Assembly: GCA_963805645.1 (NCBI GenBank)
Contig: CAWDVA010000002.1
Location: 48,923 to 112,922 of the forward strand
Length of the DNA: 64,000 bases
Direction of reading: 5' to 3'
DNA from: an uncultured Chloroflexia bacterium
GTDB taxonomy: Bacteria; Chloroflexota; Limnocylindria; QHBO01
This document shows positions 1 through 34,326 of the stretch, piece by piece. The notes under the pieces were generated by a model. That model was not told the DNA's origin, ran no database searches, and saw only the letters and a program-made list of their open reading frames with translations. Positions within the stretch are counted from its first letter, which is position 1; every line of letters starts with the position of its first letter. Both the position numbers and the translations under genes were made by a program.

Positions 1-439
1 CCATCCGGATCCAGGCATCCATGGTGTCGTCGAAGGCGTCGGGGACCAGGGCGTAGTGCGCGTAGATGCCGCGGCGGACGAACGGGTCCGACCAGGCGGC
101 GTACAGGTCGCGGGTCAGCTCGGGATCGGCTGAGGCGGCCAGCGCCTGGCCCGCCAGGCCCACCCAGGCGGAGCGGCCCCAGATCTCCTCCAGCCGCGGC
201 GATCCCGCCATGAAGCCCACGAGGTCATCTCGCTCGTCCAGGGCGGCGACCGCGAGCGCGCCGGCGGCGGCGAGCACAGCCTCGAGCGGGGGTCGCATGG
301 CGGCCGGGTCTGCGAACCGCGGCGAGAGGGCGGGCAGGGCGGCGCGCCATCGGGCGTGACGGGCGGCGAGGAGACTGGCCGCCGCCGCGACGTGCTGGGT
401 CTCGAACGGCACGATGCGATGCCGCGGCACCTGGCTCAT
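1..439 (-). CDS. Probable GNAT-family acetyltransferase, N-terminal part (runs off window)
   Basis: Manual translation MSQVPRHRIVPFETQHVAAAASLLAARH...DDLVGFMAG...RDLYAAWSDPFVRRG; open to window edge; TATAGT 9 nt upstream of ATG. Confidence 0.55.
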   Translation of the reverse strand, partial: MSQVPRHRIVPFETQHVAAAASLLAARHARWRAALPALSPRFADPAAMRPPLEAVLAAAGALAVAALDERDDLVGFMAGSPRLEEIWGRSAWVGLAGQALAASADPELTRDLYAAWSDPFVRRGIYAHYALVPDAFDDTMDAWIRM

Positions 440-29000: not shown

Positions 29001-29909
29001 GTGCGATTCTTCCGATTCATCGGCTTCAGCGCCGTCCGCGCCTGGCAGGGGTTCTGGCGCAACGCGATGATGAGCCTGGCCACCACGGCAACCGTGGTGC
29101 TCATGCTCGTCCTGCTCTCCGGGCTCTTCATCGTGGTCAGCGGCCTGAACTCGGGACTCCAGTTCATCGAGAGCAAGGTGGGAGTCACCGCCGAGCTGGT
29201 GGGCGAACCGGACCAGCCGGACCTCACCACGGACCAGCTGGACGCGCTGATCACCTTCACGCGATCCCTGCCGGGGGTCGACACGGTGACCTACGTGAGC
29301 CCGGCGATGGCCATGCAGCGCCTCAAGCAGGTCTACGCGCAGCGCGGGCAGCAGCTGGACCTGGGCGAGTCGGGAGGCAACATCAAGCTCTACGCGAGCA
29401 TCGAGGTCTCACTCACCGATCCGTCGTACTCGGAGTCGGTGGCGAGCGCGCTTTCCGACCGCTCCGAGGTCGTGCAGATCACGACCAAGCAGGCCTCCGT
29501 GGACAAGCTCATTTCAGTCATCAACGTGATCCGGACGGTGGGCCTGGTGGCCATCACCCTGGTGGGCCTGACGGTGCTGTTCATGATCGTCAACACCATC
29601 CGGATCGCGGTCTACGCCCGCGCCAACGAGATCGAGATCATGCGGCTTGTGGGGGCATCGGACAGCTTCATCCGGTGGCCGTTCATCCTCGAAGGGATCC
29701 TCTGCGGCCTGCTGGGGGCCCTGGTGGCGATCGGCATGGTGGCCATCGTCTGGGACCCGATCCAGCCGATCCTCTACAACGTCTTCCAGATGCCCGTGGC
29801 GGTGGGCGCCCGCTTCCTGGCCACCCTCTCCGCGCTTCTCCTGGCCGTGGGCCTCGGCGTGGGCGCGGTGGGATCCTGGATCAGCGTCCGCTCCTATCTG
29901 AGCGCGTGA
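29001..29909 (+). CDS. ftsX: Cell division permease FtsX
   Basis: [23 protein letters not shown]...FIRWPF..EG. Confidence 0.95.
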
Positions 29910-30014
29910 CTGCCTGACCGCGGCCGGGACGGCCCGGCTCGCCCATTCGAACCGTGATGGCCCCGTGACCGGCCCCGCACGGGAACGATGCTAGACTCAC
30001 GGAGCCCCCCAACG

Positions 30015-31484
30015 ATGACGAGCACCGATCCGACCGAGACGCCCACCCCGGCGTCCACCGAGCAGACACCCACACCACCGACGGTTCCGTCAGTGCCGAT
30101 GCCGACCGCTGCCCCCGTGGCGCCGGCCTCGCGCTCCTTCGGGTCGCCCGCCGGCTGGATCGTGGCGCTGGCGCTGGCCTCCGTGGTGGGTGCCCTGCTG
30201 TTCGTGGGCGGCTACCTGGCCGCGGGCGGCAACCGCACGACCGGATGCTCCGCGCCGGCGGCCGCCTTCGCCCCGTTCTGCGACGCGTACGACAAGCTCA
30301 AGAGCGAGTACGTCGATCCGCTCGACGACTCGACGCTCGTCCAGGGCGCCATCCAGGGCATGTTCCAGTTCGGAGTGCCGGACCCGAACACCAGCTACAT
30401 GCCACCGACCCAGTACCAGCAGGCGCTGGGGGATCTGTCCGGCAAGTTCAGCGGCATCGGCGCCGAGATGTCGGTGAAGAACATCCAGAACCCCACCGAC
30501 CTCGCCTCGTGCACCACCCTGTCGGACGCCTGCGTGCTGGTGGTCGTGAGCCCCCTCTCCGGCTCTCCCGCCGAGAAGGCCGGGTTGCAGCCGGGCGACA
30601 TCGTCACCGCGGTCGACGGCACCAGCGTCAACGGGTCGACGATCAACGACCAGATCACCAGGGTGCGCGGCGCGACCGGCACCAAGGTGACGCTCAGCAT
30701 CAAGCGCGGCGACTCCGCCTTCGACGTCACCATCACCCGGGCCGAGATCACCATGAAGGAGGTGGAGACCAAGCTGATCGACGGGCACATCGGCTACATC
30801 GCGCTCCACGCCTTCAGCGACGCGTCGCCGGACGAGTTCAAGGCCGGGCTCAAGAGCCTCCTGGACCAGGGGGCCGACCAGATCGTCTTCGACCTGCGTA
30901 ACAACGGCGGCGGCTACATCCTCTCGGCCCAGAAGATCGCATCGCAGTTTGTCAGCTCGGGGACCATCTTCACCCAGGAGTCCTCCGGCGGCGAGGTCAA
31001 GACCTGGAGCGCGCTGGACGGCGGATTGGCGACGAATCCGAAGATCCCGGTCGTGGTGCTCGTCAACGGGGGCAGCGCGTCCGCCTCGGAGATCGTGAGC
31101 GCAGCGCTCAAGGAGCTCGGGAGAGCGACCCTCATTGGCGAGCCCACGTACGGCAAGAACACCGTGCAGGTCTGGGCTCCGCTGCAGAACGGCGGCGGCG
31201 TGCGGATCACCATCAGCCGCTGGTTCCCGCCGAACCACGACAGCGTTCATCCCGATGGCGTCCAGCCCGACATCGCGGTGACCATCCCCGACGGGACGCC
31301 GCCCGAGAAGGACCTGATCCTGGACCGTGCGGTCGCCTACCTGGGCTCCCTGACCGGAGGCGCACCCGCTCCATCGCCGGTGCCTTCGGCCTCGCCCGGG
31401 CAGGCCGCGCTGGCCCCGGTTGGCGGATTCTTTGACCGCATGCTGAGCTGGGATCCCGGCGGGCTGACGAACGCGTACGGCTGA
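30015..31484 (+). CDS. ctpA: S41 carboxy-terminal protease (PDZ)
   Basis: N-terminal TM, FSGIG, PDZ, DLRNNGGG, SASASE, TYGK. Confidence 0.92.
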   Translation: MTSTDPTETPTPASTEQTPTPPTVPSVPMPTAAPVAPASRSFGSPAGWIVALALASVVGALLFVGGYLAAGGNRTTGCSAPAAAFAPFCDAYDKLKSEYVDPLDDSTLVQGAIQGMFQFGVPDPNTSYMPPTQYQQALGDLSGKFSGIGAEMSVKNIQNPTDLASCTTLSDACVLVVVSPLSGSPAEKAGLQPGDIVTAVDGTSVNGSTINDQITRVRGATGTKVTLSIKRGDSAFDVTITRAEITMKEVETKLIDGHIGYIALHAFSDASPDEFKAGLKSLLDQGADQIVFDLRNNGGGYILSAQKIASQFVSSGTIFTQESSGGEVKTWSALDGGLATNPKIPVVVLVNGGSASASEIVSAALKELGRATLIGEPTYGKNTVQVWAPLQNGGGVRITISRWFPPNHDSVHPDGVQPDIAVTIPDGTPPEKDLILDRAVAYLGSLTGGAPAPSPVPSASPGQAALAPVGGFFDRMLSWDPGGLTNAYG

Positions 31485-31511
31485 CCCGTTGCCGGCTGGC
31501 GGCATCGCTGC

Positions 31512-31640
31512 TAGCATCACGCGCAACGAAAGGAGGTGGTGTGCAGTGAGTAGTCCCTGTCACGCCACCACCGAGGCGGTGCGATAACCACCCTTCGCGT
31601 GGTAGCGAGGTGAGAGCCGGCTGAAACGGCCGGCTCTTTC
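31512..31640 (+). other. Candidate small RNA / 13-codon sORF unit (ORF 31546-31587, MSSPCHATTEAVR)
   Basis: TAGCAT -10-like box, AAAGGAGGTG SD, GTG...TAA, downstream hairpins and terminator. Confidence 0.55.
31612..31640 (+). terminator. Intrinsic terminator-like hairpin upstream of smpB
   Basis: AGAGCCGGC-TGAAACG-GCCGGCTCT followed by TTC. Confidence 0.7.
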
Positions 31641-31690
31641 CATGCCTGCCGAGTCTTCGCCGATGAGCCGAAACAGCGCGAAACGGACCC

Positions 31691-32155
31691 ATGCCTGACA
31701 AGACGATCGCCCTCAACCGCAGAGCACGCCACGAGTACGCCGTCAGTGAAACGCTGGAGGCGGGCCTGGTGCTGACCGGGACGGAGATCAAGTCGATCCG
31801 GGCCGGCAAGGTCAACCTGGCCGAGGCGTACGCGCGCATCGAGCACGGCGAGGCCTGGCTCATTGGTGCGCACATCGCCCCGTACGAGCAGGGCAACCGC
31901 TACAACCACGAGCCGCGACGGACGCGCAAGCTGCTCCTCCACCGCGACCAGATCGCGGAGCTGGTGGGGCTGACACAGGCCAAGGGCCAGACCCTGGTGC
32001 CCCTGCGCCTCTATATCCGCGATGGCCGAGCGAAGGTCGAGCTGGGCATCGCCCGCGGCAAGAAGACGCACGACAAGCGGCGCACCATCGCGGAGCGCGA
32101 CCAGCGGCGCGAGCTGGAGCGCGAGGCCAAGACCGCAGGGCGGATCAAGCTCTAG
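31691..32155 (+). CDS. smpB: SsrA-binding protein
   Basis: [36 protein letters not shown]. Confidence 0.98.
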
Positions 32156-32274
32156 GGAGTTGATGCCCCTTCAATCTCGGGCCGGGTTGGGGTGCGGGCG
32201 ATCCCGGGGCGCGCGACGCGCGAATGGTCTCAGATCCCCCACCCGGCGACTGGTAGGGGGTGCCCGGAGCCTCC
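32156..32274 (+). ncRNA. Candidate structured RNA (long irregular hairpin), family unassigned
   Basis: Nested complementary segments across the whole intergenic region (see findings). Confidence 0.4.
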
Positions 32275-32279
32275 GCGGC

Positions 32280-33116
32280 TCAGCGCGGCACGAACCAGGT
32301 GACGGGACGTTCCACGTCGGCGGCCACGACCAGGACGGTTCCGCGAAGGACATCCATCCCGATCACGCCCTCGACCGTGCCATGGGCCTCCGGCGTCATG
32401 AACACCGGGCCCATGGGCAGTAGCGCGTCGCCGATGCGCAGCCGGGCTCCCTCGACCGTGGGCGACCGCATCTCCCGTCCACCAATTGCTCGACCACTGA
32501 CCGCCTCGGCGCCAAGGGCCATGCCGGGCAGGGCCGCGGCGGCGAACGACGTGGAGCGCGCCCCCGAGTCGAGCAGGGTCAGCATCTCGCGGTGACCGTC
32601 GACGGCACCGTGCACCAGGATGGTGGTCTCGGACGGATCGCGCCCGAGGCGGACCGGGCGAAGGGAGGGATGTCGGCGTCGCAGCTCGGCGAGAACCGCC
32701 TCGAGCGGACCGTCGACCACGGACAGCTCCGGCGAGGCAAGATCCAGGACGATCCAGGCCGACCGATGCAGCGCCTGCGGGCTCAGGAACCCGCCGATCC
32801 CCCAGCCCGCGAAGGGCGGAGGCCCTTCTGCGACGGGAACGCCGTGCAGCGACATCGGCCAGCCGGTCAACGAGCCCTGCAGGCGGTCGACGCGCCAGGA
32901 TGGGACGGAGTCGCCCGCCGCATCGGTCCCGGGTTCGTCCGGCGACAGATCGGCTCCGATGCGTCGCGCGAGATCAAGGGTGAGGACATGCTCCGAGGCG
33001 CCGGTGTCGCAGATCAGTCGCGTCCCCACGCCACCCACCACGGCGAGCACCATGGGTGCATGCGTCAGCTCGCCGGTGGCGGTTTCGTACGTGATTGGCG
33101 TGCGCAGCAGCTCCAC
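32280..33116 (-). CDS. Two-domain retropepsin-like aspartyl protease
   Basis: ICDTGAS and LLDSGAR motifs; GVIGMD flap motif. Confidence 0.8.
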   Translation of the reverse strand: MELLRTPITYETATGELTHAPMVLAVVGGVGTRLICDTGASEHVLTLDLARRIGADLSPDEPGTDAAGDSVPSWRVDRLQGSLTGWPMSLHGVPVAEGPPPFAGWGIGGFLSPQALHRSAWIVLDLASPELSVVDGPLEAVLAELRRRHPSLRPVRLGRDPSETTILVHGAVDGHREMLTLLDSGARSTSFAAAALPGMALGAEAVSGRAIGGREMRSPTVEGARLRIGDALLPMGPVFMTPEAHGTVEGVIGMDVLRGTVLVVAADVERPVTWFVPR

Positions 33117-33197
33117 CGCGGGATGGTGGCCGATGACGCCTAGAACAGGTGTTCACATCGGCACATCGGTCTGGTAGAATGCGCCCGTTCGGTTCGT

Positions 33198-33560
33198 GGG
33201 GATGTCAGGTTTCGACAGGGCTCAGGGACCGGAGATCGCAGGTCGAGGTCGCCCGCAGGCCTCGTTAAACCGCGGGCAAAGCCAGTAACTGGCAACAACA
33301 GTTACGCCCTCGCCGCTTAGTCGGTGAGCATCGACACCGTCCCCCCTCCCCGGACGGTGAAGATGTCATCAGGGGAGGTGCGGCGTCGCCGACTCCGGTG
33401 AGCGGCGTCAAAGAGCCGAGAGGCACCACCGGATAGCAAGCGGAGCACCCCGCCGGTCGGGGACCCGCAACGCGAAGCGCAAGTTGGCCGGAAATACCTG
33501 TAGGAAGTCTCCGGCGACTCGGTTCTGGACGGGGAGTTCGATTCTCCCCCATCTCCACCA
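33198..33560 (+). ncRNA. ssrA: tmRNA; tag (A)GNNSYALAA at 33291-33320
   Basis: 5' GGGGATG..TTCGAC; 3' T-arm GTTCGATTC and CATCTCCACCA with G3-U wobble; tag ORF ends YALAA-TAG; TAGAAT at 33175-33180. Confidence 0.97.
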
Positions 33561-33738
33561 CACACCCCATCCGCGCAGGGAAGGCTCTCCTCCCCCTTGC
33601 CTGCCGCCGGCATGTCGACGCTCACGCGTCCGGCCCAATTTGAACCGTGGCGAGGTTTCGTCCGCCTGATCAGTGAAGGATGCGCGCGTCCTCGTCGACG
33701 GCAGCCGGCGTCGGACCACGCCTGACAGGAGGGAACCC

Positions 33739-34326
33739 ATGCGTCATTCGCCGACGGGCAGGGGTGTGCTCGGCATCGCCGTCATCTCTGCTCTGCTGAT
33801 GTTCACGGCCGCGCAGCCGGTGCTTGCGAACCGCGGGCACCCGAACCAGATGGTCCCGTTCAGCGCAAGGTTCACCACCATGCAGACCGGCATGGACGCG
33901 ACATTCACGACACCGGGTGCCGAGCGCTGCACCATCCCGCCGCCGGGCCTCGGGTGGTTCTCGGTGTTCGATGGCCAGGGCGTCGGCACCCACATCGGGC
34001 GCTACGTCGAGCACAACACGCACTGCACGTACGTGGACGGACCCACCGCCAGCGGCGTCCGAGGCCACATCGAGCTCGCCGAGGACAGGATCGTCACCGC
34101 CAACGGTGACGTCCTGACCGGCGTCTACCAGGGAACCTGGGAGGTGAACTATGTCACCGGTACTGCGACCGTCGACATGACATACCAGGTCACCGGTGGT
34201 ACCGGGCGCTTCGCCGGAGCCTCCGGTGCCGGCACCTCCCATCTCGATCAGTCGATCACCACCGGCGCGGGCGTGGGGTACCAGGCGGGCTGGATCTCGT
34301 ACGACGCGTCGGACCGCGCTCACTGA
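33739..34326 (+). CDS. Secreted beta-rich hypothetical protein (dirigent/AOC-like barrel)
   Basis: AGGAGG RBS, signal peptide, VTGGTGRFAGASG motif. Confidence 0.7.
   Translation: MRHSPTGRGVLGIAVISALLMFTAAQPVLANRGHPNQMVPFSARFTTMQTGMDATFTTPGAERCTIPPPGLGWFSVFDGQGVGTHIGRYVEHNTHCTYVDGPTASGVRGHIELAEDRIVTANGDVLTGVYQGTWEVNYVTGTATVDMTYQVTGGTGRFAGASGAGTSHLDQSITTGAGVGYQAGWISYDASDRAH

Follow-up and report, generated by a model that had tools for sequence, protein, structure and literature searches.

A conserved, unannotated mini-gene with a sequestered Shine-Dalgarno sequence upstream of smpB in Limnocylindria, possibly a ribosome-gated leader

Introduction

What occupies the 206-nt gap that separates the gene of an S41/PDZ C-terminal peptidase from the co-oriented smpB gene in an uncultured member of the Limnocylindria (phylum Chloroflexota)? 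The gap lies in a stretch of 64 000 nucleotides (nt) of contig CAWDVA010000002.1 (assembly GCA_963805645.1, positions 48 923 to 112 922), hereafter the window, from a genome of 2.89 Mb with 70 % G+C. It holds what we call the mini-gene (window positions 31489-31645), an unannotated element, single-copy in its genome, with a promoter, a Shine-Dalgarno (SD) sequence of 13 bases, an open reading frame (ORF) of 13 codons and a terminator with a 12-bp stem. A first-pass annotation of the window had proposed an sRNA (small RNA) or micropeptide gene, a decoy for the 30S ribosomal subunit, or a translation-sensing attenuator of smpB.

Here, we report that the mini-gene is a real, conserved transcription unit, far beyond what chance would produce, and that, as judged by sequence comparison, hardly a letter of it has changed in several deep branches of the Chloroflexota. 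We favour, with a probability of roughly 0.45, the reading that it is the promoter and leader of the gene behind it, i.e. a conserved ribosome-gated leader in the form of an SD-locked, two-state mini-gene.

Conservation and distribution of the mini-gene

In a search with a 216-nt query, 30 of 41 sampled relatives gave a match. For f1, the family of this genome, this was the case in 23 of 24 genomes; identity was 79-97 %, the matches span only approximately query positions 23-168, i.e. a 145-nt core, and the flanks do not align. A 23-nt motif, ACGAAAGGAGGTGRTGTGCARTG, of which the SD forms the core, was found with up to two mismatches in 325 of 401 sampled Limnocylindria genomes, including 159 of the 177 high-quality genomes of the class and almost always in one copy, while a reversed-pattern control gave 0 matches. 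By family, the motif was present in 99/153 (f1), 75/92 (f2), 135/137 (f3), 15/16 (f4) and 0/2 (f5) genomes, and in 26 of 31 f2 genomes when three mismatches were allowed. The class counts include genomes flagged as unpublished (G011, G021, G127, G402, G440 and eight more), and no claim rests solely on these. The first-pass annotation had made its case depend on relatives keeping the layout of SD, ORF and terminator, and relatives do keep it.

In a sample of the whole phylum, 125 of 401 genomes matched with up to two mismatches, a count that includes chance-like matches. The matches were concentrated in families f6 (2/3), f8 (2/2), f10 (5/5), f17 (3/3), f18 (5/8), f25 (22/30) and f29 (11/11), and nearly absent from f9 (1/18), f14 (0/8), f15 (1/25), f21 (0/10), f22 (0/26) and f24 (1/12). 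Scanning one genome per species returned at least 120 stretches; among the 80 loci read, 77 carry a short ORF and three are ordinary genes. A longer form with 24 codons occurs in six of these 80, three of them labelled Ktedonobacteria. Although they match the pattern exactly, L126, L127 and L151 were rejected as ordinary genes with long ORFs, and the two-mismatch matches L217-L235, L239, L240, L242 and L243 in other families, many of them probably chance SDs, were left out.

Limnocylindria-type units were also seen in five records (L094, L111, L112, L150 and L165) labelled Bathyarchaeia, Alphaproteobacteria, Zixiibacteriota, Steroidobacteraceae and Saccharimonadales, with smpB in the flank of four of them (not in L094). 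These are probably mis-binned or mislabelled contigs.

Promoter and predicted start of the RNA

All features of the mini-gene lie on the plus strand. The first pass had noticed a TAGCAT box (31512-31517), which we confirm as a -10 element and to which we add a -35 partner, TTGCCG (31489-31494), at a spacing of 17 nt; the predicted transcription start falls at about 31523-31526. In an alignment of 20 relatives, the TTG of the -35 box is invariant and the spacer variable. The motif TTGnnn-16..18-TAnnnT stands upstream of the mini-gene in 30/31 sequences of f1, 100/105 of the f3 group, 4/4 of f4 and 8/8 of the Ktedonobacteria type. Its distance to the SD is kept as well: the end of the -10 box is 10-12 nt away from AAAGG (9-11 nt from GAAAGG) in 30/31 f1 and 100/105 f3-group sequences, and 9-13 nt away from GAAAGG in 25 of 30 loci outside the Limnocylindria. 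From this distance, the RNA should begin only about 1-5 nt before the SD (about 2-5 nt in the window).

The Shine-Dalgarno sequence and the mini-ORF

The extended SD, GAAAGGAGGTGGT (31528-31540), is invariant in all 31 f1 sequences and complementary to the 3' end of the genome's own 16S ribosomal RNA, GGATCACCTCCTTTCT; between the two, 13 pairs in a row are possible, of which one is G-U. The start codon follows at a spacing of 9 nt. The first pass had singled out AAAGGAGGTG (31529-31538) as the strongest SD of the window; the SD is indeed strong, but it is not unique, as the 11-mer GAAAGGAGGTG occurs four times in the 2.89-Mb genome, i.e. in the mini-gene, antisense to the end of the 16S gene and twice ahead of ordinary genes. 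The latter two, complementary to the 16S tail over at least 11 nt (one over 13 nt), stand outside the window before the genes of a 64-aa (amino acid) protein and a response regulator (G000:C2:122081 and C8:137925).

The ORF (31546-31587) encodes the peptide MSSPCHATTEAVR and ends in TAA; it was found where the first pass had placed it, as were the TAGCAT box and AAAGGAGGTG, and the 2- and 4-codon mini-ORFs described along with it are present. Frame, start, stop and gaps could be compared in related sequences, whose counts are not independent events. All 31 ORFs of f1 have 13 codons, with GTG (28) or ATG (3) as start and TAA (18), TAG (8) or TGA (5) as stop, while the length is 14-17 codons in f3, 15 in f4, 21-28 in f2 and 21-25 in other lineages. 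Throughout, the start is GTG or ATG, and the three stop codons alternate at a single aligned position. Gaps in the alignment measure 3, 6 or 9 nt within the ORF and have any length right after the stop; in f1, the interior of the ORF is free of indels, and indels of 1-4 nt set in just past the stop. The start lies 18, 21, 24 or 27 nt before the segment that can pair with the SD (see below) in 98 of 98 f3-type sequences, and both other frames are interrupted by stop triplets in 27/31 sequences of f1 and 100/105 of the f3 group. The conservation of start, stop and frame that marks a translated small ORF is thus seen in the sequences compared except for part of f2, where the C-terminus is frame-shifted in 10 of 27 sequences. 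Variants with 21-25 codons, e.g. MGSSCCEGSF... and MDRHSCRGTQ..., were seen at L171, L183, L236, L238, L264 and other loci of Chloroflexota families.

The peptides themselves differ between families (MSSPCHATTEAVR; MIDSTRSCTTSQEMAV; MSNDSCTAASHEVSA; MGDASGNPKT...; MSEPSRCTGSGVESHTFQQRGLRR), with only a short stretch in common within families, and no runs of regulatory codons were found in them across the families compared. A frame that is kept around a variable peptide points to selection for translation of the frame rather than for a particular peptide. By these sequence comparisons, the mini-ORF is probably translated, and a peptide acting through its specific sequence is unlikely.

A second SD-like motif, GAGG (31573-31576), lies 8 nt before the stop codon. 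Across five groups, 160 of 175 unique sequences carry GGAG or GAGG at 5-12 nt ahead of their stop codon, as compared to about 10 expected from letter shuffles.

Two alternative folds

The RNA from 31520 to 31645 folds with -67.6 kcal/mol in RNAfold (z = -6.6), and none of 200 shuffled sequences folds as well. The minimum-energy fold consists of a hairpin between SD and anti-SD, a small hairpin and the terminator. Its first element reproduces a pairing predicted in the first pass, in which GGAGGTGGTGTG (31532-31543) is bound by CACGCCACCACC (31561-31572); the latter segment, the anti-SD, is made up of codons 6-9 of the ORF. In this locked state (state A), GAAA at the 5' side of the SD is left unpaired. 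The cells of helix A are paired in 96.8 % of cases in the 31 f1 sequences and in 90.5 % in 78 f3-type sequences.

When the SD region is masked in folding, a different hairpin forms (state B, open; 31563-31607), in which CGC/ACCAC/CGAGG/GGTG pairs with CACC/CTTCG/GTGGT/GCG and the stop codon comes to lie in the apical loop. Here, the ACCAC of the anti-SD is bound by an invariant GTGGT (31599-31603), a pairing available in all 31 f1 sequences. The local ACCAC/GTGGT hairpin of the first pass is not kept, with 57 % of its cells paired in the same sequences; GTGGT finds its partner in the ORF instead. Helix B of the 78 f3-type sequences shows compensatory changes, on both sides, at four pairs (in 2, 5, 7 and 12 sequences). 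Either helix can be accommodated by all the sequences.

The energies of the two states differ between families. In f1, B lies a median of 4.4 kcal/mol above A and is the lower one in 0 of 31 sequences, i.e. the more stable fold is the one with the SD locked, while the median difference in f3 is +0.4 kcal/mol and B is lower in 46 of 98. A bistable SD-sequestering switch is defined by one segment with two conserved pairings that exclude each other and are similar in energy. The mini-gene fits this description, and the near-equal modelled energies suggest that its RNA is a two-state switch of SD accessibility.

Elsewhere, the SD is sequestered by other segments, i.e. by CCTTTC pairing with GAAAGG in f2 and by CACACCTTCC in the Ktedonobacteria types. 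In the Ktedonobacteria type, a covarying long-range helix, identified by eye in six loci, links the ORF with the terminator base.

A terminator that stays intact

The mini-gene ends in an intrinsic terminator (31612-31639), predicted by RNAfold and supported by covariation, with an AAA loop and the tail TTTCC. Its stem has 12 bp (31612-31623 with 31627-31638, two of them G-U) and not 9 bp as first described, and its U-tract is weak; a simple terminator scan missed it because the run of U is short. The cells of the stem are paired in 97-98 % of cases, with changes on both sides at three pairs in f1 and six pairs in f3, and the homologous terminators of lineages with lower GC content carry 5-8 U.

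For attenuation, a ribosome footprint of 29 nt was masked at every codon of 167 sequences and the rest refolded. The terminator remained at least 80 % intact at every masked position in 152 of the 167 (f1 28/31, f3 group 96/105, f2 24/27, f4 4/4), and neither a conserved antiterminator pairing nor a complementary segment was found by this masked folding. The distance from stop codon to terminator is 25-32 nt in the Limnocylindria and about 95 nt in the Ktedonobacteria types. With no antiterminator found in these models, an attenuator of the trp type is not supported.

Downstream genes and RNA-library coverage

In the window, the terminator is followed by an unconserved spacer without promoter-like motif (31640-31690) and then by smpB (plus strand, 31691-32155; Pfam SmpB, E = 1.5e-60). 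The same gene follows the mini-gene in 81 of 84 Limnocylindria loci, with two of the misses at contig ends and one unexplained. Outside the Limnocylindria, the next gene on the same strand is birA (26) or greA (3) in 29 of 30 loci, often in the order birA-greA-lysS, as supported by Pfam. Four genomes of the Ktedonobacteria type carry smpB on another contig, and in a fifth it was not found. The specific linkage to smpB that the first pass had in mind is therefore not supported. In family f17, the mini-gene stands directly before greA, without birA.

The spacers between terminator and downstream gene measure only 44-75 nt in the median, the value for f1 being 44 nt. The promoter motif was found in 0 of 154 spacers before smpB in f1-f4 (0.8 expected) and in 2 of 25 spacers before birA (2.2 expected), the latter after exclusion of five of the 30 non-Limnocylindria loci in which the criteria found no terminator or no gene. 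Since the downstream genes have no promoter detectable in this way, this suggests that they are fed by read-through from the promoter of the mini-gene.

Three studies yielded metatranscriptome contigs of relatives that include the mini-gene, and one of these contigs, 636 nt long, runs from the upstream region through mini-gene and spacer into smpB. At a low depth of 2-7, and with ends and strand that cannot be read from them, such contigs show presence in RNA libraries only, and gaps in their coverage carry no meaning.

Interpretation

Taken as a conserved ribosome-gated leader, the mini-gene would work as follows. A sigma-70-type promoter would start an RNA in which the 13-nt SD comes after only a few bases. 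The short ORF behind it (13 codons here, 13-28 in relatives) would be translated and carries the anti-SD, whose partner would be the SD in the locked state A and the GTGGT decoy downstream in the open state B. Opening might be brought about by the 3' tail of 16S rRNA, invading state A via the unpaired GAAA as a toehold, after which the decoy would capture the freed anti-SD. Most transcripts would end at about 115 nt at the constitutive terminator, as nothing in the RNA is predicted to prevent termination, and read-through would feed the downstream gene, i.e. smpB here and birA-greA-lysS in other lineages. Ribosome occupancy of the 5' end could thereby set the stability and fate of both the short RNA and the read-through mRNA. 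This effect on RNA fate, by way of occupancy and hence stability, is probably what the switch puts out, rather than termination or a sequence-specific peptide.

It is tempting to go one step further and to see here a natural toehold switch read by the ribosome, in which the 16S tail lands on GAAA and displaces the anti-SD, the decoy traps the latter, and the RNA senses free mature 30S subunits and sets the expression of upkeep genes by protecting or exposing the leader. This extension is speculative, and we consider it unlikely.

Several points weigh against the leader reading. Family f2 mostly lacks the promoter motif upstream of the mini-gene (4/27), and the promoter test relied on one simple motif, by which other types of promoter would be missed, also in the spacers. 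Helix A is without compensatory support because it is almost invariant. The RNA contigs prove neither a discrete transcript nor transcription, because they cover the promoter region too. The downstream genes share no obvious regulatory logic, and the greA gene of the same genome (G000:C4, approximately 92030-92376) has a different leader, in which the promoter TTGACA-17-TACAAT is followed by a GC-rich structured region of about 130 nt and by a U-rich terminator, and which has no SD or ORF like that of the mini-gene. RNA ends and ribosome occupancy are predictions, the output of the switch is a guess, and the strong U-rich terminators of low-GC lineages are no less in keeping with an independent sRNA than with a leader.

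Such an independent sRNA or mini-mRNA, i.e. a dual-function sRNA/micropeptide gene acting in trans through its peptide or through exposed segments that differ between the conformers, and placed only by chance before housekeeping genes, is the main rival reading and possible, if on the doubtful side. A conserved promoter of its own, a terminator supported by covariation and canonical U-rich terminators in lower-GC lineages are what such a gene should have; as a single-copy element, it is kept in deep lineages with different neighbours (smpB vs. birA/greA), and the covarying long-range helix of the long Ktedonobacteria form is typical of structured sRNAs. A weak, sub-threshold resemblance to the sRNA CC2171, taken up below, would offer a precedent for an sRNA that begins with an SD. 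Against this reading, the mini-gene always sits co-oriented and directly upstream of a gene (81/84 and 29/30 loci), with short spacers (medians of 44-75 nt) that lack a promoter motif; it has no known target, and its peptide varies from family to family, with frame-shifts in part of f2. The single-copy state is at odds with a ribosome decoy or sponge, in which the 13-nt SD at the start and the second SD-like motif, 8-11 nt ahead of the stop, would hold 30S or 70S ribosomes and thus titrate or park them. The length and invariance of the SD, the fixed distance of the second motif from the stop (160/175) and the unconserved peptide would suit this idea. In f1, nevertheless, the more stable of the two states is the locked one, the contigs in RNA libraries reach a depth of only 2-7, and we know of no precedent for such a sponge; we consider it improbable.

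Slightly less credit still is due to a classical ribosome-mediated attenuator, in which the position of the ribosome would select antiterminator or terminator and so control read-through into smpB. The order of SD, leader ORF, hairpins, terminator and gene is that of an attenuator, and the spacer is without a promoter. Yet 152 of 167 sequences keep the terminator to at least 80 % at all modelled ribosome positions, a ribosome that has reached the stop codon, 25-32 to about 95 nt ahead, is too far away to cover it, the variable peptide offers no regulatory codon runs, and the mini-gene heads unrelated genes. By the same test, and with no antiterminator found, the translation-sensing attenuator of smpB proposed in the first pass is not supported. 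The view that there is no dedicated element, i.e. that the terminator of the S41 peptidase gene and the promoter of smpB happen to enclose a chance SD and ORF, has in its favour the intergenic position between two co-oriented genes. It is effectively refuted: the promoter precedes the hairpins and the terminator follows them, which is the wrong order, the core is invariant in hundreds of genomes while the flanks vary, the frame of the ORF is kept, and the mini-gene recurs in another gene context. The earlier interpretation thus stands as regards an unannotated, conserved transcription unit with a frame-kept mini-ORF and a sequestered SD, and finds no support as regards attenuation and control specific to smpB, while a sequence-specific micropeptide is unlikely.

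The mini-gene would add a new, widespread RNA family, absent from Rfam 15, in a large and poorly studied phylum. It heads genes of ribosome rescue (smpB) or those for biotin ligase (birA), transcript cleavage (greA) and tRNA charging (lysS), and its design is unusual, combining an ORF that carries its own anti-SD, a competing SD-like decoy, a second SD-like motif before the stop and a constitutive terminator. If the ribosome-sensor reading were true, the mini-gene would be a conserved means of sensing free ribosomes, with no counterpart described so far. It offers a testable model for the sensing of ribosome availability by RNA, and the design of synthetic toehold switches could take it as a natural starting point. 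In the annotation of Limnocylindria genomes, it shows where the promoter and leader of smpB probably lie.

Genomic neighbourhood

Upstream of the mini-gene lie genes with Pfam matches to FtsX (29001-29909) and to the S41/PDZ C-terminal peptidase (29988-31484), both on the plus strand. Directly 3' of the terminator, an ATG (31642) opens a frame of 18 codons, ATGCCTGA (31642-31698), whose TGA overlaps the start of smpB, and most relatives of the same family have ATG, GTG or TTG directly after CTCTTTCC. As a second mini-ORF, this frame was rejected, since by eye its phase relative to smpB is not kept in relatives. The smpB gene of the window has no recognisable SD (GACC[CG]ATG).

Further downstream, Rfam calls a transfer-messenger RNA (tmRNA) gene at 33198-33560 (128 bits), which ARAGORN, run on 33000-33800, did not call. 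It is preceded by TTCACA-17-TAGAAT with TG, the only strong sigma-70-like promoter match in 30500-33800 (tmRNA region 33152-33560). Between smpB and the tmRNA gene, an ORF of 277 aa on the minus strand (32280-33116) encodes two retropepsin-like aspartyl-protease domains (Asp_protease_2 and gag-asp_proteas).

Comparison with known systems

The Rfam scan proposed in the first pass matched no described family. At the gathering threshold, Rfam 15 places no family on the mini-gene, the tmRNA being the sole match in the window. At E<=10, the window yielded no family for the mini-gene, CC2171 (14.9 bits) ranking below RcsR1 (15.8 bits), and at E<=1 in nine loci, nothing overlapped it except, again below threshold, CC2171. 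Membership in CC2171 (RF01867) was rejected at 14.9 bits in the window and 22.6 bits at L029, as compared to a gathering threshold of 75 bits. Readings as a tRNA-like or SmpB-binding mimic and as a T-box were dropped by eye, and no T-box or tRNA model of Rfam matched. The likeness to CC2171 consists of a 5' CGAAAGGAGGUGA followed by ..CAGUG and of a GC-rich terminator at the 3' end; the middle of the model does not align, and CC2171 belongs to the Alphaproteobacteria, whereas the mini-gene belongs to the Chloroflexota. In the passages of the preprint that concern it, CC2171 is an expressed alphaproteobacterial sRNA, validated by Northern blot, with unknown function (bioRxiv 10.1101/2022.01.24.477521).

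No description of the mini-gene was found in the literature covered, which excludes most subscription journals. Leader-peptide attenuators, such as those of trp, his and ilv and the ilvB upstream ORF motif (PMC11109978, in passages that mention no Chloroflexota, smpB or birA motif), resemble it in that an SD close to the promoter, a short ORF whose start and stop are conserved, hairpins and an intrinsic terminator precede the gene. The mini-gene shares with them the leader ORF and SD ahead of terminator and gene, but has neither an antiterminator nor runs of regulatory codons; moreover, its ORF sequesters its own SD, and the genes behind it vary. By its own promoter and terminator, it also resembles an independent sRNA or small mRNA.

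GraL of Escherichia coli comprises terminated transcripts of the greA leader, in which a terminator lies close to the promoter and read-through feeds greA. The mini-gene is likewise predicted to combine short terminated RNAs with read-through, and greA belongs to the operon behind it in most lineages outside the Limnocylindria; GraL, however, is not known to have an SD, an ORF or an SD lock, and Rfam returned no match for the mini-gene. STAB-SD of Bacillus thuringiensis cryIIIA is a stabiliser of mRNA in which a sequence of the GAAAGGAGG type, perfectly complementary to the 3' end of 16S rRNA, lies at the extreme 5' end. The mini-gene has such a long 16S-complementary SD at its predicted 5' end, where a ribosome could shield the RNA from 5' decay. 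While STAB-SD is not known to be used for initiation, the SD of the mini-gene is followed at a proper spacing of 9 nt by a conserved start codon and a conserved frame, and it is part of a two-state switch. Finally, RNA thermometers, translational riboswitches and leaders of the ermC type also have an SD that is paired or free in conformers close in energy. In contrast to these SD-sequestering switches, the mini-gene would regulate the SD of its own mini-ORF and not that of the downstream gene, and the competitor of its SD is an SD-like decoy.

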